In this document: piece after piece, positions 15,028 through 29,850 of the stretch
How the letters are laid out: each line of letters begins with the position of its first letter
How positions within the stretch are numbered: the stretch's first letter is position 1
Assembly (NCBI GenBank): GCA_003345545.1
Contig: PRDH01000006.1
Coordinates: 1-30,041, forward strand
Source of the DNA: Candidatus Thorarchaeota archaeon
GTDB taxonomy: Archaea > Asgardarchaeota > Thorarchaeia > Thorarchaeales > Thorarchaeaceae
DNA: 30,041 nt
Direction of reading: 5' to 3'
Translations under genes and position numbers: made by a program
Notes under the pieces: generated by a model
The model's input: the letters and a program-made list of their open reading frames with translations, nothing else
What the model was told of the DNA's origin: nothing
Database searches by the model: none

Positions 15028-15570
15028 CTATGTGACTATGAATGATTCTCTGCATACAGAACATGTGACCGTTTCACCCTTGACTGCCACACGTTCCAGG
15101 TCAGTCCTACAATACGGGCAACCATGGATTGTCTTCGGTGCGGGTCCACTACCTGTGCCAAGAATGAGATCGCCTGAATCATGGTCGATTCTGCCTGAGA
15201 TTTCCCGCCCATCAAGAAGGTCTCCTAGAATCTTTGTGACAATCTGAGGTGGAACTCCAGACTCCTGAGATATCCTCTCAATTGGGATCTTTCTCATAGA
15301 TTGGACCGTTCTCTGGACTGCCGTGACGGGATCAACAGTAGCTTTCTTCTGAACGGGGGGCGAATATAGTCTTGCAGATCGTAGGTCGGATGCTTCTATT
15401 TTCTTTGCAGGTGGAGGCGCCCGAACCGGTTCTCCAACGTTCTTAAGCTGCTGCCGAAGGCCTGCTATCTTAGTCTTATACTCGTCTTCTGATACCCATC
15501 CGCGCATGTAATCAAGGTCTAGATCCTTAATTGCGGACTCAAGCTTTGCTACTTCGTCTTCGTGCTTCAT
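15028..15570 (-). CDS. PCI-like winged-helix protein with N-terminal SHOCT-like helix pair and C-terminal Zn ribbon
   Basis: GWVSEDEYKTK (SHOCT-like); IPIERISQESGVP..IVTKILGDLL..EISGRIDHDSGDLIL (PCI winged-helix pattern); CPYC...CSVC. Confidence 0.7.
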   Translation of the reverse strand: MKHEDEVAKLESAIKDLDLDYMRGWVSEDEYKTKIAGLRQQLKNVGEPVRAPPPAKKIEASDLRSARLYSPPVQKKATVDPVTAVQRTVQSMRKIPIERISQESGVPPQIVTKILGDLLDGREISGRIDHDSGDLILGTGSGPAPKTIHGCPYCRTDLERVAVKGETVTCSVCRESFIVT

Positions 15571-15663: not shown

Positions 15664-16224
15664 TTAGTCAGTCAGTCGGCGTCCCTCTGGAAGTTCATCC
15701 AGAAGCAATCCTTCCTTCTCGATTCTCTTGACTGCCTTCTTTGCCTTTGCGCCGCCTATGTTTTCAAGAGCGCCAGCAACAGTCTGTCTCACAAAGACAG
15801 ATTCGTCCTCAAGTGAGCTTATCAGTGCGTCAACAGCCTTCGGGTCCTTTCTTTCCCCCAGCTGGGCGGCGACATGAATTCTCATCATCTGTCTGCGGTC
15901 ATGCAGCCCTTGAATCAGTATTCCCGTGGCTCGTGAGTCCTTCAACTGACTCAATCGTTCCACCGCGCCGAGAGCGACCTGTTCATCATCGCTCTGTATT
16001 TCTGCCTGAAGCTCCTTGAGGATATGATCATCCTCTTTGCCTTTTGGTTTCTCTTTGGATTTGGCCTTCTCTGCTGTCTTGCTTGATGTCTTCTTGACAG
16101 TGACAGTGCCCCTTGTTTTAGAATCGGTTGCTCTCTTGGCCGACTTGGGTGTGGCAGAATTGGACTTGCCAGGAGTCTTCTTTGCCTTGCTCTCTTTCTT
16201 GGTGGACCGAGCGGACTTTGACAA
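15664..16224 (-). CDS. HEAT (PBS-lyase-type) repeat protein with Lys-rich N-terminal tail
   Basis: About 60-aa K/S/T/A-rich region, then three HEAT repeats (VALGAVERLSQL, RIHVAAQLGE, VRQTVAGALENIG); TTG start with GAGGAG upstream. Confidence 0.8.
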   Translation of the reverse strand: MSKSARSTKKESKAKKTPGKSNSATPKSAKRATDSKTRGTVTVKKTSSKTAEKAKSKEKPKGKEDDHILKELQAEIQSDDEQVALGAVERLSQLKDSRATGILIQGLHDRRQMMRIHVAAQLGERKDPKAVDALISSLEDESVFVRQTVAGALENIGGAKAKKAVKRIEKEGLLLDELPEGRRLTD

Positions 16225-17316: not shown

Positions 17317-18330
17317 ATGGCCAAGATTGAGTCCGCTCACGGGGCTGGCGGAAGGATTATGCAACGGCTCCTTGAAGAGATTGTCATTCCATCATTCGGT
17401 CTGAGAAAGATTGGCTCAATCGGTCTTGATGAAATGGATGATGGAGCGACTCTAGAAGTACAGGGCCATCATCTGATAGTGACCACTGATGCACACACCG
17501 TCCATCCTATCTTCTTTCCGGGTGGCAATCTGGGCACTTTGAGTGCCTGTGGGACTGTGAACGACCTTGCTGTGATGGGCGCACGGCCTGTGGCAATGAC
17601 AAACACGGTGATCATTGAAGAGGGTATGGAGATTGAGACTCTTCAGGCCATCCTAAAGTCATTGAACGCGATCATTGAACCCCTCGGTATTGCGATGATT
17701 GCTGGTGATACAAAGGTCATGCCACCAGGAACACTCGATGGACTGGTGATGTCAACGACGGGTATAGGCGAGGTCTATCTTGACCATCCCGTGTCTGATA
17801 CTGGCGCTCAACCGAGTGATGACGTCATAATCACTGGACCAATTGGAGACCATGGTACGGTCCTTCTAGCACATCGAGAGGGCCTGGAATTCGAAACGAG
17901 CTTGACTAGCGATGTGGCTCCTCTCTGGGAACCAATCCGCGACTGTCTAGATGCTGGTGGCATTCATGCTATGAAAGATCCAACAAGGGGCGGCACTGCA
18001 GTTGCATTGAACGAGATTGCCTCCAAATCCAAATTGGAGATGGAGCTAAAGGAAGTCCAGATTCCAGTACGCCCAGCTGTTCAGTCCCTCTGTGATGTTC
18101 TTGGCCTGAACCCTCTGCATATGAGTAGTGAGGGAAGGGCAGTGATGGCGGTGGACTCCAGCAGAACTGACGATATCATGTCAGCCCTTCAAAAGCATGC
18201 TACCACAAAGGATGCACGGGTTGTTGGAACAATAAGGAAGGGGACTCCGAGAGTTCTATTGAAGACAGCAATTGGTGGAAGAAAGGTGATTCAAGTACCA
18301 TATGGCGAGCCGGTACCTCGTGTCTGCTAG
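17317..18330 (+). CDS. hypE: Hydrogenase maturation protein HypE
   Basis: HGAGG, PIFFPGG, GTVNDLAVMGA, GDTKV, MKDPTRGG, and C-terminal PRVC carrying the reactive Cys. Confidence 0.95.
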   Translation: MAKIESAHGAGGRIMQRLLEEIVIPSFGLRKIGSIGLDEMDDGATLEVQGHHLIVTTDAHTVHPIFFPGGNLGTLSACGTVNDLAVMGARPVAMTNTVIIEEGMEIETLQAILKSLNAIIEPLGIAMIAGDTKVMPPGTLDGLVMSTTGIGEVYLDHPVSDTGAQPSDDVIITGPIGDHGTVLLAHREGLEFETSLTSDVAPLWEPIRDCLDAGGIHAMKDPTRGGTAVALNEIASKSKLEMELKEVQIPVRPAVQSLCDVLGLNPLHMSSEGRAVMAVDSSRTDDIMSALQKHATTKDARVVGTIRKGTPRVLLKTAIGGRKVIQVPYGEPVPRVC

Positions 18331-18890
18331 AAGACATCCTGAGCTGCTGATTCTCCCGCCTGTCCTTGGTCTTCAAAGATCTTCTTCATCTTGAATTTCA
18401 GTTGTGCCTTCAACTTCACCCTATCGCTGTCCAGACCAAAGTAGTCGGCGAAGAGAGGAGTTGTTGTCAGGAGTCTGGATCTCCCTTCAGGTGCGGACTC
18501 GACGAATTTCTTCTCAATCAGCTCTTTCACATGGTCATAACAATGGGTCCCTCTCTGTGTTACAAGGTCTGACTGCATTATGGGTTGCTTTAGGGCTATG
18601 AAGACAAGTGTCTGCAGTGTTGCGAACGAGAGAAGTCCCCCGGGTATCAGTCTGCCTACCCTGGGAGTCAGTTCTGGCTTCAGCTGCATTACGTAGCGAT
18701 CTCGAGGAAGAGATACCACCTCAAGCGCTCCCTCTCTCTGGCTATACTCGAATCCAAGGTTGTCTAGTATCTTCTGTGTTGTCGATTGTGACTTACCGAT
18801 GAGATTGGATAACTCCTCAAGTGTCAGTGCCCTGCCGCTGACATAGAGCGCCGCTTCAAGTGTGACCATGTCTTCGTCCACGTTCATCAC
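18327..18890 (-). CDS. scpB: SMC-Scp complex subunit ScpB
   Basis: LEAALYVSG, TLVFIALKQPI, RG...HVKEL, TTPLFADYFGL; directly downstream of scpA. Confidence 0.95.
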   Translation of the reverse strand: MMNVDEDMVTLEAALYVSGRALTLEELSNLIGKSQSTTQKILDNLGFEYSQREGALEVVSLPRDRYVMQLKPELTPRVGRLIPGGLLSFATLQTLVFIALKQPIMQSDLVTQRGTHCYDHVKELIEKKFVESAPEGRSRLLTTTPLFADYFGLDSDRVKLKAQLKFKMKKIFEDQGQAGESAAQDVF

Positions 18891-19596
18891 CCTGCCGTCT
18901 TATCTCGGGCTTTTCCGCTTCCTCTTTGATTTCGGGAGGTTCGCGCATCTTCAACATGATTATGTCATCCTCATCCATCCAGATATCAATGAAACTTCTA
19001 GCATACAGAAACAACAGGGAAAAGAACACTCGAACAATCTCTTTGCGAGTGTGATTCATGAGAATATCGGTGAACTTGACGATTTCGCCTATCTTCACGA
19101 TTCTCTGGAGGTCCTCGTAGACTTCCGCAATCGTTTCTTCAATGTTTGCTTGGTCTGAATCCATTGAGAAGGTCAGTGGGTCTGCGCTACCGCGATACTT
19201 CTGTTTGGTGGGGGCCATCCGTTCTCTTGTTCCCTTGCTCAGGACAAGATCCATGGCAACGAGTAGTTCTTCGAGTGTGACACGTCTATTAGTGAGTCTG
19301 AAGGGCGGTCTGATGAGTGGAATCTCAAGCTCTCCATCATCGCCTTCTTCGCTGGGTGGAAGAACACCAAGCTGCACAAGCTCTCGTGTTTTTCGCATGA
19401 AGATGACGGAGGCTGAGTAGAGCGCATTTCCTGAAATGCGAAAATCAATATCACCTAATCGTTTCATCTCAGTGAGGAATCCAACAACCAGTTTTCCGAC
19501 ATCGACATTCCATGGTTCTACCTTGTCCAGCTGAAGGACATCAGTGAGGAGGATGTAGGGGGGTGTTGCCCAGAATGGAGCATCATCATCCATCAT
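18856..19596 (-). CDS. scpA: Kleisin ScpA
   Basis: EPWNVDV N-terminal motif, RRVTLEELL, C-terminal VRVFFSLLFL winged helix; overlaps the smc stop. Confidence 0.92.
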   Translation of the reverse strand: MMDDDAPFWATPPYILLTDVLQLDKVEPWNVDVGKLVVGFLTEMKRLGDIDFRISGNALYSASVIFMRKTRELVQLGVLPPSEEGDDGELEIPLIRPPFRLTNRRVTLEELLVAMDLVLSKGTRERMAPTKQKYRGSADPLTFSMDSDQANIEETIAEVYEDLQRIVKIGEIVKFTDILMNHTRKEIVRVFFSLLFLYARSFIDIWMDEDDIIMLKMREPPEIKEEAEKPEIRRQGDERGRRHGHT

Positions 19597-22500
19597 GTTC
19601 CAGCTCCGACCTCCTCCAGATCAACTGATACTATCCTTGATATTCCATCCTGATTGGCCACACCAACAAGAAGATCCGCCTTTCGAACGGTCGTGTCCCT
19701 GAGGGATACCACAATGAACTGCGATGATCTCGCCATCTCCGAAATAAGCTGAGCGACATTGTGAGCATTCACATTGTCCAGTGCTGCATCAATCTCATCG
19801 AACACGTAGAAGGTCGAGGGATTGTACATCTGAATTGCAAAGATTAACGCAAGCCCGGTGAGGGTCTTCTCACCACCGCTCATTGCATCAAGTGTCACAA
19901 GTTCCTTGCCAAGTGGTTTTGACCTTACAGTGATGCCGCCCATCAGTGGATATTCGGGGTTCTCAAGCATGAGACTCCCTTCACCACCTGGAGAGAGTTT
20001 TGCGAAGACCTTTGCAAAGTTGTCTGCAATATCATTGTAGACCGTGAGGAATTTCTGAGTCTTTTCTGCTTCCAGTTCCTCCATGAATGCAAGAATCTCT
20101 TTTCGTTCTTCCTCCAATTTGGTCTTCTTGTCTACAATCTCATCATATTTTTCCCGTTCAAGATCGTAGTCTGTGAGTGATTTCAGATTGACAGGCCCCA
20201 TCGCCTCGAGTTCTCTCTCTATCTCTTTGATTTTCTCCTCGAGTTCTTCCAACTCCCGATACGTAGGTTCCCTTGCATCCTTTCTCTCTTCGAGTGCCTC
20301 GTCAACTGCGATGTGGGTCTCCAAGTCTGCAACAAATCCAACAATATCTGTTTCCAGACGATTCTGTTCCGTCTGCAACCTGTACACTGCCTTCTCATTT
20401 GAGGTCTGAGCCTCTCGAATCTCCTCGTGGCGTAGTCTGTGATTCCTAACAGTTTCTTTTAGCTCAAGCTGCTGTACTCTCTTGTCCTTCACTGCCTCAT
20501 CGATTTGTTCTCGTTTCTCCTTCAGCTTGAGGAACTCGTTCTCTCTCTCTTCCAGTCCTAGTTCATGCCTCTTGACCTCTTCTTCAAGGCCTGGAAGTAT
20601 TGAGTCATGTGCCTGAATCTTCGACTCTATCTCAATTGCCTTCGGACCGAGCCGCTCATCGAGAGCAACTCTCAAGGATGTAATCTCGCTCTGGAGCTTC
20701 TCCCGTTGTTTCTGATATTGTTCTTGGACTTGCTTCAGGTCCCTGATGTCTTGATAGGTCTTTGCAGAATCAGACTTTGTGAGGTCTTCGTTGCACTGAT
20801 CACGCTGTGCCATGACTCTCTCGCGTTGAACCGTGAGTTCCTCATCACGTTCCTGAAGGCTCTTGATTTGGATTTCAAGCTCTTCTATTGTCACGCTGGC
20901 TTTCTTGATTCTCTCCTGTAGTGCCTTTGATCTGTTCTCTTGTTCACTCATTCGGTCTTGGAGCTTTTCCAGTTCCAGCCTTGCACGATAGTTCGACTTA
21001 GATAGTTCTTGGAGTTCTCTCTCCAGAGCTCTTTTCTCATCTCGTAGGGTGCTCTGCTTACTTCTCAATTCAGCGAGAATATCTTCAAGTCCCTGAAGCC
21101 GTTTTGCTATCTCTGGGCTAGTGTCTTCTACCTGGAGCGAGAGACCTCCACCACCACCTTTCTGGTAGTATCCCCCTGTCATTAGGCCTGACCGCTCTAT
21201 GAGGTCTCCCTCGAGTGAAACTGCGCGCTGACCTCGGAAACCAAGGCGCTTAGCAGTGTCGAATCCCTTTGTCACTATGGTGTCAGAGAATACGAATTCA
21301 AAGGCTGGTCGCATCTTTGGCTCAAATTTGACAAGGTTCAGTGCGAAATCTATGACTCCATCATCACTCGGTAGTTTCTTCGGAGGTTGGGTCTTTATCT
21401 TATCAAGTGGAATAAACGACGCTCGCCCCACTCTATCACGTTTCAAGATCTCTACGCATGCCGTTGCTGTATCCTCGTTCTCGACGACGATATACGATAG
21501 TCTGTTGCCTCCAGCTATCTCCATTGCGACCGCATAGTCCGGGTCTATTGTACCCAACTCAGCAACAGTGCCATGGATTCCACTAATCTCCCCACTATCC
21601 CTCAGCTCCAACACCTTGGCAATTGCCCTTTGCTTCTTCAAGAACGCGTCCTCTGCCTCCTTGAGAGCGTCTTGGCGAGCCTGAACTTTGATCAGTTCTT
21701 CTCTTGTTGACGCCACGATACGTGCGCTCTCATCCGCCTCCGCGTCAACGGTTGTAAGGTGGCCGGTGACCTCCTCATACTTCTTCTTCTTGGACTCCTC
21801 CAGCGCTTCGTCTCTCTCTAGCACTTGTCGTCTCTCAGGAATGACTTGTTTCAACTCCTTGAGGTCTTGCTCTGCCTTCTCAAGACCATCAGTGGAGTCT
21901 CTAGACTCCTCGTAGGCAAGTCCAAGTTCCCTGTTATCCGATTTTATCGATGAGCGTATCTCTGAAACCCCCTCATCTAGGGCTCGAAGCTGAGTACTCA
22001 GATCCTGCAAGCGGAGAGTTGTTTCGTAATAGGCCGTCTGTTCCTTCTCAGATATCTCCTCAAGGCGTATGACTTGAGCTGCTGTGCTCGATATCTCCTT
22101 CTCGAGCTTGTCGAATTGCACTATCTTCCCTTTCATGAGGTGTTCATTACTGCTCATCTCACTCTGGACAGACTCTAACTCCTTGAGCAGACCGGTCTTC
22201 TCACTACTGGCTCTATCGTACTCTGCCTGTGCACGCTCAAGATTGGAGCGAACATGGCTCACTGCAGCAGAAACTATACCATATTGCTCAGATATCTTAG
22301 CAGAGTCTCCTCCCGTTATCTGATCTATCTCATGGTCGATTGTATCTATCTCTGTGTCCGTCGCAGTGATTCCCGTTTCGACTTCGACAAGCTCCTTTGC
22401 AAGATTGCTTGCCTCCTCTGCTCTCTGAGTGAGAGTTTCCTTAATGGCATCTATTCTGAGTCTGCCCTTGATTATGCTCCACGCAAGTATGTCGATTCTG

Positions 22501-23186
22501 TGTTTCTGTATCTGGGCACTCAGTCCCTTGTGGCGGAGGGCATCCGACCGTTCCTCTTCCAGTTTCTCAAGTTGGCGCCGACGTTCTTGTAGCTGAGCAT
22601 CAACCTTTCCCAAATTACTCTCGCTCTCTGCCAGTTTCTTGAGAGCTCGCTCCTTTTGTTCATCATATGCGGAGATGCCCGCAATCTCCTCAATCATCTT
22701 CCGTCGCTCAGCGGGGCTCACCTTTACCATCTGAGCGATTTCGCCCTGAAGCACAAGATTGTACCCGTTTGGATCAACCCCAACGGCGCCAAGCACATCG
22801 ATGACAGCGCCTCTGGTTACTGTCTTGTTGTTGATACGACAGACAGACTTGCCCGTATCATCCAGTTCTCTCTCAATGACCACTCTGTCGGCATCAATCT
22901 GCAGTTTTCTGTCAGTATTATCGAAATGCAGCTCAACTATTGCAGACTTTGCCTTCGGTGGCATGTTTGGCTTTGGTGGCGAGTAGAGCAGATCCGAGAA
23001 GACTGTCGCACGCAGGGTCTTAGCACTTAGTTGCCCTAGGACGAAGAGAATGGCATCTACCACATTTGACTTGCCTGAGCCGTTTGGACCAACGATGCAC
23101 GTGAAGCCAGGATTGAATTTGATGGTGACAGAGTCTCGGCCAAATGATTTGAAGCCCTTGCATACTAGCTTCTCGATGTGTACCAA
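19593..23186 (-). CDS. smc: Chromosome segregation protein SMC
   Basis: GFKSF, Walker A GPNGSGKSN, hinge (GIHGTVAELG, GRASFIPL, GLMTGG), signature MSGGEK, Walker B FYVFDEIDAALD. Start probably TTG 23186; the ORF extends to 23207. Confidence 0.97.
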   Translation of the reverse strand: MVHIEKLVCKGFKSFGRDSVTIKFNPGFTCIVGPNGSGKSNVVDAILFVLGQLSAKTLRATVFSDLLYSPPKPNMPPKAKSAIVELHFDNTDRKLQIDADRVVIERELDDTGKSVCRINNKTVTRGAVIDVLGAVGVDPNGYNLVLQGEIAQMVKVSPAERRKMIEEIAGISAYDEQKERALKKLAESESNLGKVDAQLQERRRQLEKLEEERSDALRHKGLSAQIQKHRIDILAWSIIKGRLRIDAIKETLTQRAEEASNLAKELVEVETGITATDTEIDTIDHEIDQITGGDSAKISEQYGIVSAAVSHVRSNLERAQAEYDRASSEKTGLLKELESVQSEMSSNEHLMKGKIVQFDKLEKEISSTAAQVIRLEEISEKEQTAYYETTLRLQDLSTQLRALDEGVSEIRSSIKSDNRELGLAYEESRDSTDGLEKAEQDLKELKQVIPERRQVLERDEALEESKKKKYEEVTGHLTTVDAEADESARIVASTREELIKVQARQDALKEAEDAFLKKQRAIAKVLELRDSGEISGIHGTVAELGTIDPDYAVAMEIAGGNRLSYIVVENEDTATACVEILKRDRVGRASFIPLDKIKTQPPKKLPSDDGVIDFALNLVKFEPKMRPAFEFVFSDTIVTKGFDTAKRLGFRGQRAVSLEGDLIERSGLMTGGYYQKGGGGGLSLQVEDTSPEIAKRLQGLEDILAELRSKQSTLRDEKRALERELQELSKSNYRARLELEKLQDRMSEQENRSKALQERIKKASVTIEELEIQIKSLQERDEELTVQRERVMAQRDQCNEDLTKSDSAKTYQDIRDLKQVQEQYQKQREKLQSEITSLRVALDERLGPKAIEIESKIQAHDSILPGLEEEVKRHELGLEERENEFLKLKEKREQIDEAVKDKRVQQLELKETVRNHRLRHEEIREAQTSNEKAVYRLQTEQNRLETDIVGFVADLETHIAVDEALEERKDAREPTYRELEELEEKIKEIERELEAMGPVNLKSLTDYDLEREKYDEIVDKKTKLEEERKEILAFMEELEAEKTQKFLTVYNDIADNFAKVFAKLSPGGEGSLMLENPEYPLMGGITVRSKPLGKELVTLDAMSGGEKTLTGLALIFAIQMYNPSTFYVFDEIDAALDNVNAHNVAQLISEMARSSQFIVVSLRDTTVRKADLLVGVANQDGISRIVSVDLEEVGAGT

Positions 23187-23374
23187 GTCTCGCAACCTTC
23201 CCGGCAAATTCGGTCATTCAGGCGTGTCAGGTTGTGTGTTATTGGGATGTTACACAGTCCTAAATACCGTTGGTATGACCAGAGTAATACCTGAGCTACA
23301 TGTAGATATTGGTCTATACGCCCTGTGTTCAATTCAACAGAGGACAGAAAAGCGTACCTCTAGTGGCCTAAGTC

Positions 23375-23746
23375 TTACTTCTTCCCTAGAATCGAGAGTA
23401 GTGAACGGCGAAGAGCCATCTTGAGTAGTCCCATAGACTCTCGAGCACCTTCTCCAGCTACTGCGGCCATCACAAGCTTCACGTCGCCCAAGATTATAAC
23501 AAGACCATGGTCAGCGGCTATACTCACTTCTCTGAGACCACCCTTGTCGAGCCCAGCGGCCAGCTGAGAGGAATTGGATGCAATCTTCACTGCAAGGTCG
23601 GCGACATCAGAGTGCTTGATGCCCCCTGTGATCGTATGTCCAAAGAGCACCTTTCCCTTTGCATCACAGATGATCATTCCCTGAAGTTCTGCATTACTAG
23701 CCATGGTTTCCGCAACAACTTGTTCAATCTTAGCCTGATCCACCAT
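23375..23746 (-). CDS. Roadblock/LC7 domain protein (1 of 4)
   Basis: Helix, then GMIICDAKGKVL, helix ending LDKGGLREVSI, and MGLLKMALRR C-terminal helix; GGAGG upstream of the ATG. Confidence 0.85.
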   Translation of the reverse strand: MVDQAKIEQVVAETMASNAELQGMIICDAKGKVLFGHTITGGIKHSDVADLAVKIASNSSQLAAGLDKGGLREVSIAADHGLVIILGDVKLVMAAVAGEGARESMGLLKMALRRSLLSILGKK

Positions 23747-23931
23747 CTACGTGTTATCCTCCTTGGAGGTCTCGAATGACTATCTCGGTCTTGAGTGCTG
23801 AAGTCTATATATCTTGTGTGATGGTCATGCACATGGCCGAGTACGCCCATCTTTGATATGAGAGAGTCGTCGATTGACTTAAAACGCCTCGTGCAAAGGG
23901 TGGCCGAGTAATTTTGGAGGCGAATATACCA

Positions 23932-25560
23932 ATGCCTATGTTGCGAACTAGCTCAGAGTCCTTTCCAGCGTCGAAAGATGTTCTGAGTGACATTCCTTAC
24001 GTCTTACGTGTAGAGTTTGGTCACCTCACCCATGAAACGACCAAGATAGTGGGGAAACCTATAGCCTGTCACAAGTGCAACGGTTTCCTACTCAGTGTAG
24101 ATCAGATTCTGGAGAACCCAAAGGTTGGCAAGCATTTCTATTGTCCATTCTGTGGAACTCTGAACGTCATTGAAGGCGAGGTCGTTGTTGCGGGAGATGA
24201 CACAGACTTCGTTGTAGAACCACCACAGATCATGACTGAATCTGACACCGGCGTCGTGTCTGCAGGTGGGAAGTCCTTCCTTGCACTCATTGATGTGTCG
24301 GGTTCCATGAGCGGCGCCAATCTTGCCGCGGTCAAGCGCAGCCTAAACACATCCATTGACAGTCTTGCCTCAAATGCTCCGGAAACGATGTTTGGTCTCA
24401 TCGAGTTCGAGAGTAGCGTCCTTGCTCGAAACCTGGAGACCGGTGAGTCTGTACAGCTACCACAGGCATCCTTTGCTAGTCTTGATGCCATCATCGAGTC
24501 AACCAAGAATCTCCTAGATAAGATTCGACTTGTTAATGTTGGAGAGAACGCCAAGAAGTTGAAGGGGCACATTCAAGCCCTTCGAGACAAGGGCGGGACT
24601 GCCCTTGGTCCTGCAGTTGCAATGGCGTATATCATCGCAAAACACCGTAACGTTGGAAGAGTGGTACTCCTGACTGACGGTCTTGCAAATGAGGGAATTG
24701 GTGCACTCGAGGGCTATCAGGTCACTCCCGCAAACAAGTATTACCAAGATTTGGGGAAGATGTTCCTAGATATTGGAGCCGCAGTCGATGTTGTAGGTAT
24801 TGCGTCGGGCGCAGGCATGGAGCTGAAGACACTAGGTTTCCTTCCTGAAGCCACAGGAGGCCAGATGTACTACGTCACTCCTAACGAGCTCGACCGAAGC
24901 ATCTCTGAACTTGCTGGTGCCACGATGCTGGGCCGTGATGTTGAGGTGCGCCTTGTGACTCCGCCCGGCATCTCAATCAAGGATGTTTCAGGTGTGTCAA
25001 GGGCGGTGGTCGACACCCTGAAAGAAAAGAGTGAGAGTAAGATTGGGGTGGTGGGCAAAAACCATGAGCTCTACTTCGAGGTAGAACCCAACACGAAGAT
25101 CAAAGAACCTGAAGTACCAATTCAAGTCCAAGTGACATACACTGATGGAGAAGGTGCTCGAAGAGTACGCGCACTCACGGCCAAACTTAAGGTTTCAAAG
25201 AAAGAATCCGAGATTATGGCGACCCTCGACCCAACTGTCGGAGCCACTTTTGTGACCCAAAAGGCAGGTGAGGAGTCCTTCAGTGGTCAGCGTGAGAAGG
25301 GTCGGGAACGAATCGCATCCTTCAGGTCTGCGATGAAGCGAAAAGCAGGGGCGGCTCCCAAATCCGTTCAGGTAATGCTTCAGAAGGCTGACGATGCATT
25401 GAATACTGAAGACAAGGAGATTCAGCGCCAAGAGGAGATGCTAAAGGCTTATCCTGCAGCTGCTCCCTCAGGCGTGGCTGATGAGGCCTTTACTGAGAAC
25501 CTCGCTCAGATGAAACGGAGTTCAAAAGCACTCTTCAAGAAAGATGAGGACGAGAAATGA
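23932..25560 (+). CDS. Sec23/Sec24-like protein: Zn finger, vWA trunk, beta-sandwich and helical tail
   Basis: PIACHKCNGFL...FYCPFCGTLN Zn finger, FLALIDVSGSM, GGTALGPAV, RVVLLTDGLANEGIG, ATGGQ, beta-rich IQVQVTYTD..GARRVRALT. Start ATG 23932 with GGAGG at 23916; the ORF extends to 23914. Confidence 0.78.
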   Translation: MPMLRTSSESFPASKDVLSDIPYVLRVEFGHLTHETTKIVGKPIACHKCNGFLLSVDQILENPKVGKHFYCPFCGTLNVIEGEVVVAGDDTDFVVEPPQIMTESDTGVVSAGGKSFLALIDVSGSMSGANLAAVKRSLNTSIDSLASNAPETMFGLIEFESSVLARNLETGESVQLPQASFASLDAIIESTKNLLDKIRLVNVGENAKKLKGHIQALRDKGGTALGPAVAMAYIIAKHRNVGRVVLLTDGLANEGIGALEGYQVTPANKYYQDLGKMFLDIGAAVDVVGIASGAGMELKTLGFLPEATGGQMYYVTPNELDRSISELAGATMLGRDVEVRLVTPPGISIKDVSGVSRAVVDTLKEKSESKIGVVGKNHELYFEVEPNTKIKEPEVPIQVQVTYTDGEGARRVRALTAKLKVSKKESEIMATLDPTVGATFVTQKAGEESFSGQREKGRERIASFRSAMKRKAGAAPKSVQVMLQKADDALNTEDKEIQRQEEMLKAYPAAAPSGVADEAFTENLAQMKRSSKALFKKDEDEK

Positions 25561-25588
25561 TATCCCATTATTGGTCTGTAGACCGAGC

Positions 25589-25630
25589 AGCCGTGCTCAA
25601 GTCAGGCACGGCTCTCTTCTCTTCCTTTGT
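25589..25630 (+). terminator. Hairpin plus pyrimidine tract, putative terminator
   Basis: AGCCGTGCT (25589-25597) pairs with GGCACGGCT (25605-25613), followed by CTCTTCTCTTCCTTT. Confidence 0.45.
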
Positions 25631-25763
25631 AACACACCGTTGTATATGTTCAAAATGCGCATTTTTGTACGTTGCACGGCAACACATCTCCACAAGTCTA
25701 AAATAGTCAACTGCGGCGTAGTTGTTGTTAGTGCACAGCTGAAAGTAGCGAGGATTCCGTGCG

Positions 25764-26063
25764 GTGATCACACAAGAAAAACTCCAGTCCATCCTGTCAA
25801 GGCTCAAGGCACAGGACGGCGTTCGTGGAGTCGTGGTGACCACCATGGAGGGTCTTCCACTGAGCAGTGATTTGGACCCTGAAACAACGGAGAGCGTCGC
25901 TGCAATCATAACCTCTCTCGTGGGTAAAGCCCTCGACGCAGTGAGGGAGCTTCGGGAGGGTTCGCTGTCATTCCTGACCCTGGACACCCACAAGGGTCAG
26001 ATCAACATCGCACCGGATGTGAAAGAGGGCCTAATACTAGTCGTCCTCAAGAACAATGATTGA
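25764..26063 (+). CDS. Roadblock/LC7 protein, dynein light chain roadblock (DYNLRB)-like (2 of 4)
   Basis: 99 aa with no C-terminal helix; LSRLKAQDGVRGVVV..EGLP, TT...A, KA...VR, LSFL, IAPD; GTG start. Confidence 0.88.
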   Translation: MITQEKLQSILSRLKAQDGVRGVVVTTMEGLPLSSDLDPETTESVAAIITSLVGKALDAVRELREGSLSFLTLDTHKGQINIAPDVKEGLILVVLKNND

Positions 26064-26078
26064 ATGGAGTGTACTGGA

Positions 26079-26543
26079 ATGAGTGATCCAAAAGCCTTCG
26101 ATAAGATACTGACCGAGATCATCCGTCAAGACAAAGGCATCAAGAAGGTCATCCTTGTAGACAAGACAGGACTCACAATTGCCAATGTATCCAAGTTGTC
26201 CTATTACCCCGTGGACGTGGACAGCATCGGAGCCATTGCCAGTGCGGTCTTCTGTGCAAGTGAGGAGCAGGGCAAGAACCTGCAGATTGGGGAGCTTGAA
26301 ATAGTCACGTCTGAATTTTCAGAGGGCAAGATCTTCGCCTCGGCCTGTGGGAAAGGTGTACTCTGTGTTGTATCGGAGGCAGAGGTCAACATTGGTCTGA
26401 TTCGTCTTGTCATGAAGAAACAGGGCGTGCAGCTTGCCGATGAGCTCGCCAAGTTCCTGGCGGTAGAGCCATTGTCTCCCAAGGATGCCGAGCTTGACGA
26501 GGAAGACCTCAAGTCAGCCTTGGCAGAACTTGAACGTGTGTAA
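26079..26543 (+). CDS. Roadblock/LC7 (MglB-like) protein with acidic C-terminal helix (3 of 4)
   Basis: VILVDKTGLTIA, IGAIASAVF, LQIGELE, VNIGLIRL, tail ELDEEDLKSALAELERV. The ORF extends to 26064. Confidence 0.88.
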   Translation: MSDPKAFDKILTEIIRQDKGIKKVILVDKTGLTIANVSKLSYYPVDVDSIGAIASAVFCASEEQGKNLQIGELEIVTSEFSEGKIFASACGKGVLCVVSEAEVNIGLIRLVMKKQGVQLADELAKFLAVEPLSPKDAELDEEDLKSALAELERV

Positions 26544-26776
26544 GTTTCGAAGTAATACACACAATTTAACAGGAATCATAGCTTCCGCTATTCAGTTCAT
26601 ATTACCATGCACTGTCAGTTGTGTTGAGGCTGCCTCCATGAAGCCCTGTTATGCCACAAAGGCTTTTATTAGGCTAGATTTTTAACTCAACAAACCTCCC
26701 TGAACATGGGCCTCAGTTCGGATGAGAACCCAAGGTCTGTCTGGAAACATGTCCGGGCTAGCAGTGAAAGAATGAG

Positions 26777-27349
26777 GTGTTAGCAATTCGCAAGGATGAC
26801 AAGGGCCGAATCCATCTGAAACTGGTATTCTATGGCCCTTCGCTTGGTGGTAAGACAACCGCACTTCGTTGGCTCTACGGAAAAGTGGAGGGTCTCCAGA
26901 AGGGCGAATTCACTGCGATTGAGGACGAGACAAACAGAACCCTGTTCTTTGACTATGTTCCGATGTCAGCTGGAGGCCGTGTCCTCTTTGATGTGTTCAC
27001 CGTGGCCGGACAGAAGCGGCACCGCCATCAGAGAAAGGTTGTCCTACAGGGCACCGATGGAATTCTCTTTGTCGCTGACTCATCCCCCGATCAACGTGAT
27101 GAAAACACCGAGAGTTTTGAAGAGTTGAAGCTGTTCCTAGGAGATGCTCTAGGGCGTGAGATTCCCATAGTGGTTATGCTCAACAAGAGAGACTTGCCCA
27201 ACAGAATGTCTCGCGACGAGATGCTTGACCTACTCGGCCTTGGAGGCAATGTCCCCATCTATGAAACCATTGCAGTCCAAGGTGTAGGAGTTAAAAGGGC
27301 GTTCCAAGCAATAGCGCGAGAGGTCATACTCAAAAGAATGTACAAGTGA
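26777..27349 (+). CDS. MglA-like small GTPase
   Basis: KLVFYGPSLGGKTT (G1), RTLFFDY (MglA switch I), FTVAGQ (G3 lacking the canonical Asp, as in MglA TVPGQ), RKVVLQGTDGILFVADS, NKRDL (G4), ETIA (G5). Confidence 0.92.
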   Translation: MLAIRKDDKGRIHLKLVFYGPSLGGKTTALRWLYGKVEGLQKGEFTAIEDETNRTLFFDYVPMSAGGRVLFDVFTVAGQKRHRHQRKVVLQGTDGILFVADSSPDQRDENTESFEELKLFLGDALGREIPIVVMLNKRDLPNRMSRDEMLDLLGLGGNVPIYETIAVQGVGVKRAFQAIAREVILKRMYK

Positions 27350-27366
27350 ATTACAGGTGAAACAAG

Positions 27367-27738
27367 ATGGGAGAGTCCCGTGAAAACACACTCGAAGGAG
27401 TTCTTAATGAACTACAGGGAAGTATTCCTGAGATTGATGCTTGTGCTATTGTGAGTGTTGAAGGACTCCCGATAGTTTCGGCTCTTCCAACAGACGTGGA
27501 TGAGGCAAAGGTTGCTGCTATGACCGCAGCGATGTTGACCCTCGGCGAGAAGGCCGCTATGGAGCTTGGAAAGGGCAATCTTGAACAGGTGAATATCAAG
27601 GGCGTAGATGGCTGGCTTCTGGTGATTCAGGCAGGTATGAATGCATGTCTCACAGTATCTACTACTGCCAATGCAAAACTAGGGCTTATATTCCTAGACA
27701 TGAAGCGAGCCGCCGAGAAGATCGCCCAGATGATTTAG
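27367..27738 (+). CDS. Roadblock/LC7 (MglB-like) protein (4 of 4)
   Basis: CAIVSVEGLPIVSALP, VAAMTAAMLTLGE, ELGKGNLEQV, AKLGLIFLDMKRAA. Confidence 0.93.
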   Translation: MGESRENTLEGVLNELQGSIPEIDACAIVSVEGLPIVSALPTDVDEAKVAAMTAAMLTLGEKAAMELGKGNLEQVNIKGVDGWLLVIQAGMNACLTVSTTANAKLGLIFLDMKRAAEKIAQMI

Positions 27739-27812: not shown

Positions 27813-28580
27813 TTGAATCTGGCCGGCCCTGTCTATAGACTGTACGAATACTTCCTATACAGACAGTTGGACAAGAGGCTCGCACCCAAGCATGTCGGAA
27901 TAATCTTAGATGGAAATCGTAGGTATGCGAAGAAGCACGGAATGGAAGTTCCCTGGTTTGGCCATCAGAAGGGGGCTGCCAAAGTACTGGAGGTGCTTCG
28001 TATTCTCTGGGAGGCCAATGTCAAAGTCTGCACAATCTATGCCTTTTCGATTGAGAACTTCCAACGAAGCAAGGAAGAGGTCAATCAGATAATGTCTTTG
28101 GCGAAGGAGAAGTTCCGTGAAGTTGTCGGGAACCCCGATGTTCATCGTCACAAGGTGCGAATCAGTGCAATCGGCCGGGTGGATCTTCTGCCCAAAGAAG
28201 TCCAGGATGCGATTCATGCTGCAGAAGAGGACACAAAGGACTACAAGGATCACATTCTCAATATAGCCATTGGATACTCGGGGCGGGCCGAGCTTGTGGA
28301 TGCCGTGCGCGCCATTGGTGAGAAGATAGAAGCGGGGCAGATGAGCGCATCTGAAGTCACTGAAGATGTGATTGAGGAGAATCTCTACACGAGCGGCATA
28401 CCCGATCCTGACCTCATCATTAGAACCTCAGGCGAGGAACGCCTCTCTGGGTTCCTTCTCTGGCAGTCTGCTTACTCTGAGCTATACTTTGCTCAGATTT
28501 ACTGGCCTGCAGTGAGAAGGATAGATATTTGGAGGGCCCTCAGGTCCTATGGCATGCGTTCCCGCAGATATGGAAAATGA
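27813..28580 (+). CDS. uppS: Polyprenyl (undecaprenyl-type) diphosphate synthase, cis-prenyltransferase
   Basis: PKHVGIILDGNRRYA, YAFSIENFQR, GYSGR, PDLIIRTSGEERLSGFLLWQSAYSEL, RRYG; TTG start. Confidence 0.96.
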   Translation: MNLAGPVYRLYEYFLYRQLDKRLAPKHVGIILDGNRRYAKKHGMEVPWFGHQKGAAKVLEVLRILWEANVKVCTIYAFSIENFQRSKEEVNQIMSLAKEKFREVVGNPDVHRHKVRISAIGRVDLLPKEVQDAIHAAEEDTKDYKDHILNIAIGYSGRAELVDAVRAIGEKIEAGQMSASEVTEDVIEENLYTSGIPDPDLIIRTSGEERLSGFLLWQSAYSELYFAQIYWPAVRRIDIWRALRSYGMRSRRYGK

Positions 28581-28653: not shown

Positions 28654-29850
28654 TTGGCAAGAACTCCAGTTGATGTGTACCGCGGTCTTGTGAAGACTCA
28701 GCTCGGGGATGGTATACAATCACAGGTCGATTCAGTCGTTGCCAGATTTACAGATTGTGTCTTTGCAGGCGAGAAACTCTCGGTCCATGTCACAAGGTTC
28801 CTCCGACTGACTACTCGCCTGAATGCATATCTCAATTCGAGAACCACAGCAGGCCAACCAGATGTCACTCTTGCCGTTGATCTGCTTGACTATCTCACTT
28901 CTACATCAAAATGGTGGACGGTCACTCGACAGGACCCTGTGCTCATCCTCAGACCTGCCTCCCGTGACGCCCGAAGTTTCATCAAATCGATTGCAGACCT
29001 CAATGTGGGTGGGAACACGCTCCAGAGGATCTCAGCAGCCACCGAAAAGCTATCTGGGTTTCTTGAAGAACACGAGGTTGGAAATCAGAAGGAGATGGAG
29101 AATCTCTGCAACGACATGCTGTCCACATGGGTCCTTCTCTGTGCCTTTGCATGCAAGAGTCAAGGCAGAAATGTCACGACGGAAGAGGATTTTGAAACAG
29201 CCTATGATACTACCCGCATTCTTCTCTTCTATGTTGACACAAATGACTACAAGGCGCTGACTGCAATACGCAGACTGGGAACTCATCCTGTTCTTCCTCT
29301 TGCCGCAAGAGTGGCATTCTCTCCGGGTTTCGAGAAGAAGCTAAATGCATCAGTTGCTGCCAATCTTGAGAGAGTTCATGGTGACTATCTTGCAGAGCTG
29401 GCAGTTGCCACGTCTGGCGCCTCTCGTTCAATTTTGACTAACTCTCTAAGACTGCTCGGGCAGCTTCAGGGAGTCAGGCAGGAGCTTGAAAGACTAGAAG
29501 AGGAACACTACGAGTCTATCATTATTGGGTCAATGGAGATTATAGAGGGAGTTGGCGTGTCTTCCGATTTTCTTAAGGACGAGTCTTCGGCGCTCACCAT
29601 CTTCAAGGGTCTGCGTCCAGCCAAGGGTGTTGATGAACGAATTCAGCTCATCACGAGAAGGTTAGAGAGCCTGATCGTCGACGCGACAGGAAACAAGGAC
29701 TTCCTACTACAATACGCACGACTGGTACCACGAATAACAGCATTGCTTCTCCTCTTGGCAAGCAAGACCAAGGAGTCCCCCGAAGCACCCCTTGAGGACT
29801 CTGATGTGAAACGAGGGCTGATTCTTCTCTATGCTCTGATCAGCGGCTAG
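28654..29850 (+). CDS. Hypothetical helical protein, apparently four tandem AAA-lid-like repeats
   Basis: 398-aa ORF with no Walker motifs; repeated helix-loop-helix ends such as QGRNVTTEEDFETAY. Confidence 0.75.
   Translation: MARTPVDVYRGLVKTQLGDGIQSQVDSVVARFTDCVFAGEKLSVHVTRFLRLTTRLNAYLNSRTTAGQPDVTLAVDLLDYLTSTSKWWTVTRQDPVLILRPASRDARSFIKSIADLNVGGNTLQRISAATEKLSGFLEEHEVGNQKEMENLCNDMLSTWVLLCAFACKSQGRNVTTEEDFETAYDTTRILLFYVDTNDYKALTAIRRLGTHPVLPLAARVAFSPGFEKKLNASVAANLERVHGDYLAELAVATSGASRSILTNSLRLLGQLQGVRQELERLEEEHYESIIIGSMEIIEGVGVSSDFLKDESSALTIFKGLRPAKGVDERIQLITRRLESLIVDATGNKDFLLQYARLVPRITALLLLLASKTKESPEAPLEDSDVKRGLILLYALISG

Follow-up and report, generated by a model that had tools for sequence, protein, structure and literature searches.

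Does a gene for a Sec23/24-like protein that lies among four roadblock genes and a small GTPase gene belong, with them, to a single archaeal GTPase/coat system? The question is raised by positions 23375–27738 of a 30,041-nucleotide (nt) stretch of a Candidatus Thorarchaeota genome (GenBank assembly GCA_003345545.1, contig PRDH01000006.1; the whole stretch is called the window). A first-pass annotation, made from the sequence alone, had proposed that roadblock hetero-oligomers switch the GTPase and that the Sec23/24-like protein is its effector. The evidence makes it probable that the locus has two layers: an ancient MglA/MglB-type switch, in which one roadblock (RB3) would be the GTPase-activating protein/guanine nucleotide exchange factor (GAP/GEF) and the three others accessory, and an independently expressed gene for a scaffold with a MIDAS (metal ion-dependent adhesion site), which landed in the locus. 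As the Sec23-like gene was inserted in one archaeal family only, its position is no evidence of a primitive vesicle coat.

Gene content of the locus

Six genes make up the 4.4 kb:

23375..23746, minus strand: RB1, a divergent full-length roadblock, reading away from the cluster toward SMC
23932..25560, plus strand: Asgard Sec23/24-like gene (suggested CPRas type), 542 residues; C4 zinc finger, vWA, beta-sandwich and helical domain
25764..26063, plus strand: RB2, a short RBLC7-type roadblock without a C-terminal helix
26079..26543, plus strand: RB3, an MglB-like roadblock whose acidic C-terminal helix is conserved
26777..27349, plus strand: MglA-family small GTPase; Arg finger R54, T55, D59, catalytic Q79, alpha5 R181
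27367..27738, plus strand: RB4, a classical archaeal roadblock (7f8m, E 1e-23)

The open reading frame (ORF) list and the Pfam and PDB matches agree on the six genes, their order and the lack of anything between them, and uphold the identities given in the first-pass annotation (roadblocks, a zinc-finger/vWA/beta-sandwich protein and a small GTPase). Pfam recognized Robl_LC7 in RB2, RB3 and RB4, the Sec23 trunk, beta-sandwich and zinc finger in the large gene, and Arf/Ras in the GTPase. For RB1 the Pfam match is weak (E 0.04), and the family profile matches the roadblock PDB 9jq8 (E 9e-23). The statement that no unrelated gene intervenes is true of this genome but not of its relatives, in which the RB3–MglA interval often, and the interval from RB1 to the Sec23-like gene sometimes, holds foreign genes or long inserts. 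Likely starts were chosen from ribosome sites and orthologue lengths for the Sec23-like gene (ATG at 23932, with a GGAGG ribosome site at 23916–23920; TTG at 23914 disfavoured; stop 25560) and for RB3 (ATG at 26079; stop 26543). There were no Rfam families in the window and no notable repeats within the cluster. The four roadblocks represent different families (pairwise identity at most 27%). Counted over the whole genome, 24 matches above cut-off are small-GTPase-like and 11, to which RB1 is to be added, are roadblocks, so that four roadblocks and a GTPase inside 4.4 kb are no chance cluster.

A probable MglA-type switch with four roadblocks

By its sequence matches, the GTPase belongs to the MglA family (Myxococcus MglA, E 3e-38) and not to Sar1/Arf (Arf4, 7e-12; Sar1b, 2e-7). 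R54 is found in at least 90% of 26 Asgard orthologues, and T55, D59 and Q79 are invariant; these residues are the equivalents of the intrinsic Arg finger R53, of T54/D58 and of the catalytic Q82 of the reference MglA. R181 in alpha5 is also invariant and aligns to K185 of Myxococcus MglA. The N-terminus is not amphipathic (hydrophobic moment 0.13) and there is no Sar1-type helix. Because a membrane-inserting helix is absent, MglA would most likely rely on partners to mark a place in the cell, as happens in bacterial polarity control.

RB3 appears from its sequence to be the best candidate GAP/GEF of this MglA. MglB proteins are the top matches of its profile (E 2e-6, core only), and its acidic tail helix is conserved. 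In Myxococcus, the C-terminal helix of MglB binds K181/K185 in MglA alpha5 and promotes exchange (PMC6785124). By analogy, an RB3 dimer would bind MglA-GTP along the beta2 strand and set R54 and Q79 for hydrolysis, while the RB3 tail helix would dock on alpha5 (R181) and speed nucleotide exchange; RB4, RB1 and RB2 may be accessory roadblocks that tune or localize this core. In Loki-type families the RB3 match ends before the tail, and MglA is diverged and unlinked, a pattern that fits co-evolution of the tail and the GTPase. Three observations weigh against RB3 as the cognate GAP. It is RB4 that is tightly coupled to MglA in Thorarchaeaceae (gap mostly 3–21 nt); several families retain MglA without a close RB3; and in one genome (G061) MglA lies 142 kb from the four roadblocks, which stay grouped.

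In G061, all four roadblocks are still beside ScpB-ScpA-SMC (L213:7938–16332). RB3 orthologues in G070 (L120:10090–10165, minus strand) and G122 (L114:9722–9797, minus strand) are split near codon 46 by inserts of 29 nt and 31 nt, respectively; removing either mends the frame, and each forms a hairpin that pairing of the exons closes, in the manner of small tRNA-type introns of archaea. RB3 of G085 also matches only from position 47, and RB3 of the window has no such insert.

That four distinct families remain neighbours across Asgard, even when MglA is no longer close by (G061), raises the alternative of a Ragulator-like hetero-oligomer, a platform for MglA and perhaps other GTPases, in which for example RB3/RB4 would be LAMTOR2/3-like and RB2/RB1 LAMTOR4/5-like. 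Pfam matches RB2 to LAMTOR5 and RB3 to MAPKK1_Int (LAMTOR3), LAMTOR2 is among the PDB matches of RB3 (weakly), and the RB2–RB3 gap is -3 to 27 nt. Against this, LAMTORs are far more distant from RB2 than dynein DYNLRB is, and far more distant from RB3 than MglB is; RB2 matches 7f8f (E 1e-25) and DYNLRB (E 1e-13), and is on this basis probably an orthologue of Odin-RBLC7, DYNLRB-like. Odin-RBLC7 and Thor-RB crystallized as homodimers (PMC10933270), many families retain only one to three of the four roadblocks, and neither a LAMTOR1-like tether nor a Rag GTPase is present in the locus. We hold a Ragulator-like assembly to be a tentative alternative of rather low probability; it is compatible with the view that the Sec23-like gene is a later arrival.

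Two further MglA relatives were seen in the genome that holds the window. A second MglA paralogue (L211:5087–6010, contig C44; 50% identity, long N-terminal extension) is present in most Thorarchaeaceae genomes and has no roadblock directly adjoining. On contig C78 (L212:5111–7573), a 315-residue roadblock-domain protein, an unannotated 306-residue protein and an MglA-related GTPase lie in a row; this could be the operon of DENN, roadblock and GTPase genes described by Liu et al., although Pfam did not confirm DENN. That operon was rejected as a match for the main locus, where no DENN-sized gene adjoins the GTPase.

The Sec23-like gene is probably an addition to an older locus

The switch genes are flanked by two conserved features:

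18327..23207, minus strand: SMC-ScpA-ScpB, conserved neighbours upstream of RB1, which mark the ancestral chromosomal context
27813..28580, plus strand: UPPS cis-prenyltransferase, conserved neighbour 3' of the switch across Asgard

Counts were made over 201 Asgard genomes, with E cut-offs that differ between genes, and family f1 was taken as Thorarchaeaceae. Of the 201 genomes, 177 had MglA, 147 had RB3 and 75 had the Sec23-like gene. Families f2, f4, f8, f12, f15, f16 and f19 have no Sec23-like gene at this place and carry the whole order RB1|RB2-RB3-MglA-RB4, in many cases accompanied by SMC-ScpAB and UPPS; part of the order occurs in f7, f13, f22 and f26 (with two or three roadblocks) and in f5 and f14. 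RB1 holds the same position in f1, f2, f3, f4, f8, f12, f15, f16 and f19. Judged from this gene order, the switch locus RB1|RB2-RB3-MglA-RB4-UPPS, with SMC-ScpAB next to it, is of old standing in Asgard.

Among the families examined, the Sec23-like gene sits in the switch locus in Thorarchaeaceae only. At 30 Sec23-like loci from seven other families, no roadblock or MglA was found in the fetched flanks (some contigs are short), and the neighbours are unrelated and lineage-specific. In G094 (Freyarchaeia, single-contig genome), the Sec23-like gene and the switch are about 860 kb apart. The RB1–RB2 gap is only about 140–350 nt in G157, G070, G120, G114, G122 and G094. Within Thorarchaeaceae, G003 (96% complete) has a clean in-place deletion that leaves 31 codons, with no other copy found; in G012 (98% complete) the gene is broken after codon about 40; and in G004 it is located elsewhere. 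The switch is intact in all three. The gene-neighbourhood comparison proposed in the first-pass annotation thus gave a divided answer: synteny holds inside Thorarchaeaceae and is absent from all the other families examined, among them some with genomes that carry both parts far from each other. Because the sister family f2 also has the parts apart, parsimony would place the insertion in the ancestor of Thorarchaeaceae, in which the Sec23-like gene would have entered the space between the divergent RB1 and RB2 as a separate transcription unit.

Conservation of MglA is 83–92% in families without a linked Sec23-like gene and 90–96% in Thorarchaeaceae; RB2, RB3 and RB4 are likewise as strongly conserved, and the Sec23-like protein drifts like SMC (52–63%). 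The idea that extreme MglA conservation in Thorarchaeaceae reflects an extra partner was rejected, as families without the linked gene are equally conserved.

Several other observations concern the surroundings. L033 and L060 carry independent inserts between RB1 and the Sec23-like gene, TnpB/IS200-IS605-like by N-terminal sequence; this intergenic region accepts insertions. Always 3' of UPPS in Thorarchaeaceae is a gene for a 398-residue protein (28654–29850, plus strand; 18% identity in f2) with no match in Pfam, Atlas or Foldseek. Its confident model is all-helical (predicted local distance difference test score, pLDDT, 92); the helices seem to form four repeats of similar build, which recall AAA+ lid or histone-like units. 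Elsewhere in the window, a small PCI-domain protein (weak CdvA-like coiled coil) lies beside a HEAT-repeat protein (15028–15570 and 15664–16224, both minus strand); the pair is syntenic in other Thorarchaeaceae loci.

Transcription signals

Three signals bear on the expression of the locus:

23879..23884, plus strand: TATA-like box, some 50 nt before the start of the Sec23-like gene
25589..25623, plus strand: hairpin and pyrimidine tract; 9-bp hairpin (25589–25613) after the Sec23-like stop
25690..25706, plus strand: conserved promoter-like element upstream of RB2

The TATA-like box may well be functional: TTAAAA or TTAATA is found at the same distance in most Thorarchaeaceae orthologues whose start was correctly placed, the promoter counts being qualitative, as several Sec23-like starts were misplaced by automatic start finding. 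The hairpin at 25589–25613 has a fold z of -4.6 against base shuffles, and its position is conserved across orthologues. At 39 orthologous loci, mean fold z was -2.2 after the Sec23-like stop, compared with -0.7 after RB3 and -0.4 after RB4, with shuffles that preserved base content, not dinucleotide content. Taken by itself, the pattern scan gave no excess of hairpins over chance (6, compared with 4.0 ± 2.1). Hairpin and tract together are likely to be a terminator. The RB2 element is unchanged in Thorarchaeaceae loci lacking the Sec23-like gene there (L103, L104, L105 and L107). RB2-RB3 and MglA-RB4 are tight pairs, while the RB3–MglA gap, below 100 nt in several other families, takes inserts of up to 3.9 kb in Thorarchaeaceae. 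With what appear to be its own TATA-like box and terminator for the Sec23-like gene and a separate element for RB2, the locus would be read as several transcripts and not one operon, as the first-pass annotation had suggested.

The Sec23-like protein retains MIDAS and lacks the gelsolin-like domain

The AlphaFold model of the Sec23-like protein (pLDDT 86) has Sec23 and Sec24 as its best PDB matches (Foldseek E 5e-30; Z 26–30, root mean square deviation (rmsd) about 4 Å over 486–503 residues). Zinc finger, trunk, beta-sandwich and helical domains are present in the Sec23 arrangement, and the protein ends in helices. The C-terminal gelsolin-like domain is absent: residues 1–542 of the model align to residues 8–640 of yeast Sec23, and then the ORF ends. 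In Sec23 this domain carries the Arg finger that is used on Sar1. The 52 Sec23-like homologues are 509–623 residues long; PMC11914678 reports that no Asgard Sec23-like protein has a gelsolin domain and that the Sar1 contacts are missing. MIDAS is intact (D121, S123, S125, T223 and D249), and these five residues and the four zinc-finger cysteines (nine positions) are invariant in 52/52 Asgard sequences. The Cys and DxSxS/T/D positions are also invariant in the eukaryotic alignment. One full-length Sec23-like gene is present in the genome, and Pfam found no GTPase domain in its 542-residue product.

When a profile of the Asgard sequences was run against 1.84 billion proteins, the next family scored 200–247 bits, compared with 66 bits for Sec24 and 28 bits for Sec23. 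Its named members are eukaryotic, one being annotated as CPRas1-like, and identity is only about 24–25%. These relatives emerged in the 50%-cluster search; the family-alignment homologue search listed Thorarchaeaceae orthologues only. A structural search of the Atlas agrees with the CPRas-type tie (template modelling score, TM, 0.82), and Asgard and eukaryotic clades are separate in a tree of rows without Sec23/Sec24 and without an outgroup. Orthology of the Asgard Sec23-like protein with the CPRas type is suggested, although the scores alone may reflect fast evolution of Sec23/24. The closer tie of the Asgard 'Sec23/24' to the MIDAS-bearing CPRas-type proteins suggests that, among eukaryotic proteins, it may be this family rather than COPII that has stayed closest to the ancestral state. 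The Thorarchaeaceae product would most likely be a metal-dependent (MIDAS) protein-binding scaffold of CPRas/ArnB type, neither a COPII coat nor an obligate part of the switch.

A second, divergent Thorarchaeaceae clade of Sec23-like genes (L072:2183–3763, G029; 36–41% identity) lies in another neighbourhood, and is sister to the in-locus clade in the tree.

Is the Sec23-like protein a GTPase effector?

Four observations weigh against the two-layer interpretation. Of 40 Thorarchaeaceae loci fetched around the Sec23-like gene, 39 have it directly upstream of RB2, and two loci of genus g6 (L061/L062) that lost RB1 and SMC kept the Sec23-like/RB2 junction. In the closest eukaryotic family, 17/66 members carry a fused Ras domain, with motifs mostly in circularly permuted order. 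Finally, in G087 (Loki-type; L094:7794–10255), the strand of the Sec23-like gene also encodes, 126 nt upstream of it, a 223-residue non-MglA small GTPase.

The persistent linkage and the Ras fusion could mean that the Thorarchaeaceae protein was recruited as an MglA effector, or binds a roadblock dimer, and that its gene moved adjacent for that reason. A possible route is offered by RBLC7-type dimers, the type of RB2, which have been proposed to bind a partner's helix (PMC10933270), the Sec23-like protein ending in helices; eukaryotes, moreover, fuse the same ZnF-VWA module to a circularly permuted Ras. However, the genes are unlinked in seven other families, and the Sec23-like gene was lost or moved three times within Thorarchaeaceae without visible change in MglA. 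It has what look like a separate promoter and terminator, its product has no gelsolin domain, and housekeeping neighbours are equally syntenic (SMC, ScpAB, S8e, thiL and UPPS are about as fixed as the Sec23-like gene itself). The GTPase fused in CPRas-type ZnF-VWA proteins is of the RAS family, a later eukaryotic derivative, not MglA (PMC2430557). We consider it quite unlikely that the protein was recruited in this way, and give equally little credence to the specific proposal that a gelsolin-less, MIDAS-bearing Sec23/CPRas-type scaffold is the GTP-dependent effector of a four-roadblock MglA switch in Thorarchaeaceae. If true, this would be an archaeal GTPase/coat-scaffold pair of the kind later fixed as Sar1–Sec23 and the CPRas fusion. 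The effector claim of the first-pass annotation is not upheld, given the lack of linkage outside Thorarchaeaceae, a GTPase that is MglA and not Sar1/Arf, and the absent gelsolin domain. Its picture of one MglAB-type switch joined to a COPII-like scaffold survives as a conserved multi-roadblock/MglA switch, without the Sec23-like protein as an obligate part.

The Sec23-like protein might instead serve another of the roughly 24 small GTPases of this genome (Rab/Ras-like), its place beside MglA being incidental. Sec23 itself binds Sar1. Because a quarter of CPRas-type ZnF-VWA proteins are fused to Ras, some small-GTPase partner is plausible, though not specifically this MglA, and the number of small-GTPase-like matches in the genome and the GTPase adjoining the gene in G087 point the same way. 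Yet 49/66 eukaryotic relatives have no GTPase, and chance alone could put 2 of about 11 independent Sec23-like placements close to a small GTPase (P 0.06–0.12). According to PMC11914678, an Asgard Arf showed no nucleotide-sensitive binding to the Asgard Sec23-like protein. Service to another GTPase is thus doubtful, though less so than recruitment by MglA, and an independently expressed scaffold remains the preferred interpretation.

Significance and comparison with known systems

To our knowledge, no native regulator of an Asgard small GTPase has been identified. The locus names a concrete and very conserved candidate set (MglA and RB3, plus RB1, RB2 and RB4) that can be rebuilt in vitro, and offers a test of whether Ragulator-like roadblock hetero-oligomers predate eukaryotes; a tempting proto-COPII reading is corrected. 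Each family has been reported separately in Asgard, as the first-pass annotation noted: MglA and roadblocks, including mentions of MglA/MglB pairs, in PMC10933270 and PMC13408092, and Sec23-like proteins in PMC11914678. In the open papers searched, where absence is not proof, we found none on the four-roadblock locus or the CPRas relationship.

Sec23/24-like proteins were reportedly first described for Thorarchaeota by Zaremba-Niedzwiedzka in 2017. The present protein is 79% identical to a GenBank 'SEC24 family transport protein' of SMTZ1-45. It is of the same family as the Asgard Sec23/24-like proteins of PMC11914678 (zinc finger, trunk/vWA, beta-sandwich and helical domain, no gelsolin domain); the passages available from that paper do not contain the Thorarchaeaceae-only position in an MglA/roadblock locus, the invariant MIDAS or the closer CPRas-type tie. 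With COPII Sec23/Sec24–Sar1 it shares fold and domain order over 542 residues, but it has no gelsolin GAP domain, retains MIDAS and is encoded by one full-length gene, and the neighbouring GTPase is an MglA without an amphipathic helix. CPRas1-type proteins (PMC2430557) have the same C4 zinc finger and MIDAS motifs, and differ in that some carry a fused, circularly permuted RAS-family GTPase that the archaeal protein lacks. Sulfolobus ArnA/ArnB (PDB 8s05, PMC12852372) pair a zinc-finger protein with a scaffold of vWA(MIDAS), beta-sandwich and helical domains (Z 25, rmsd 4.0 over 360 residues); in the Thorarchaeaceae protein the zinc finger is in the same chain and no FHA partner was seen, and ArnAB controls motility by phosphorylation, with no GTPase.

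Ragulator (LAMTOR2–5) with Rag GTPases likewise has four different roadblocks, one of them a short RBLC7 type. The present locus differs in its GTPase (MglA, not Rag), in the lack of LAMTOR1 and in a full-length RB1, and any heterodimers of its roadblocks are hypothetical. MglA–MglB of Myxococcus xanthus and Thermus thermophilus, with the accessory roadblocks MglC and RomY (PMC6785124, PMC13408092, PMC9481161), differs in that the Asgard locus holds four roadblock families beside SMC-ScpAB and UPPS, has no RomR/RomX or motility genes nearby, and encodes a Gln in MglA at the position of K181 of the Myxococcus protein. The likenesses to MglA–MglB are an MglA with an intrinsic Arg finger and catalytic Gln, an adjacent MglB-like roadblock with an acidic C-terminal helix, a basic alpha5 residue (R181, corresponding to K185) and several roadblock paralogues. 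The MglB interface residues, which we take to be A64/G68, are replaced by C/E in RB3.

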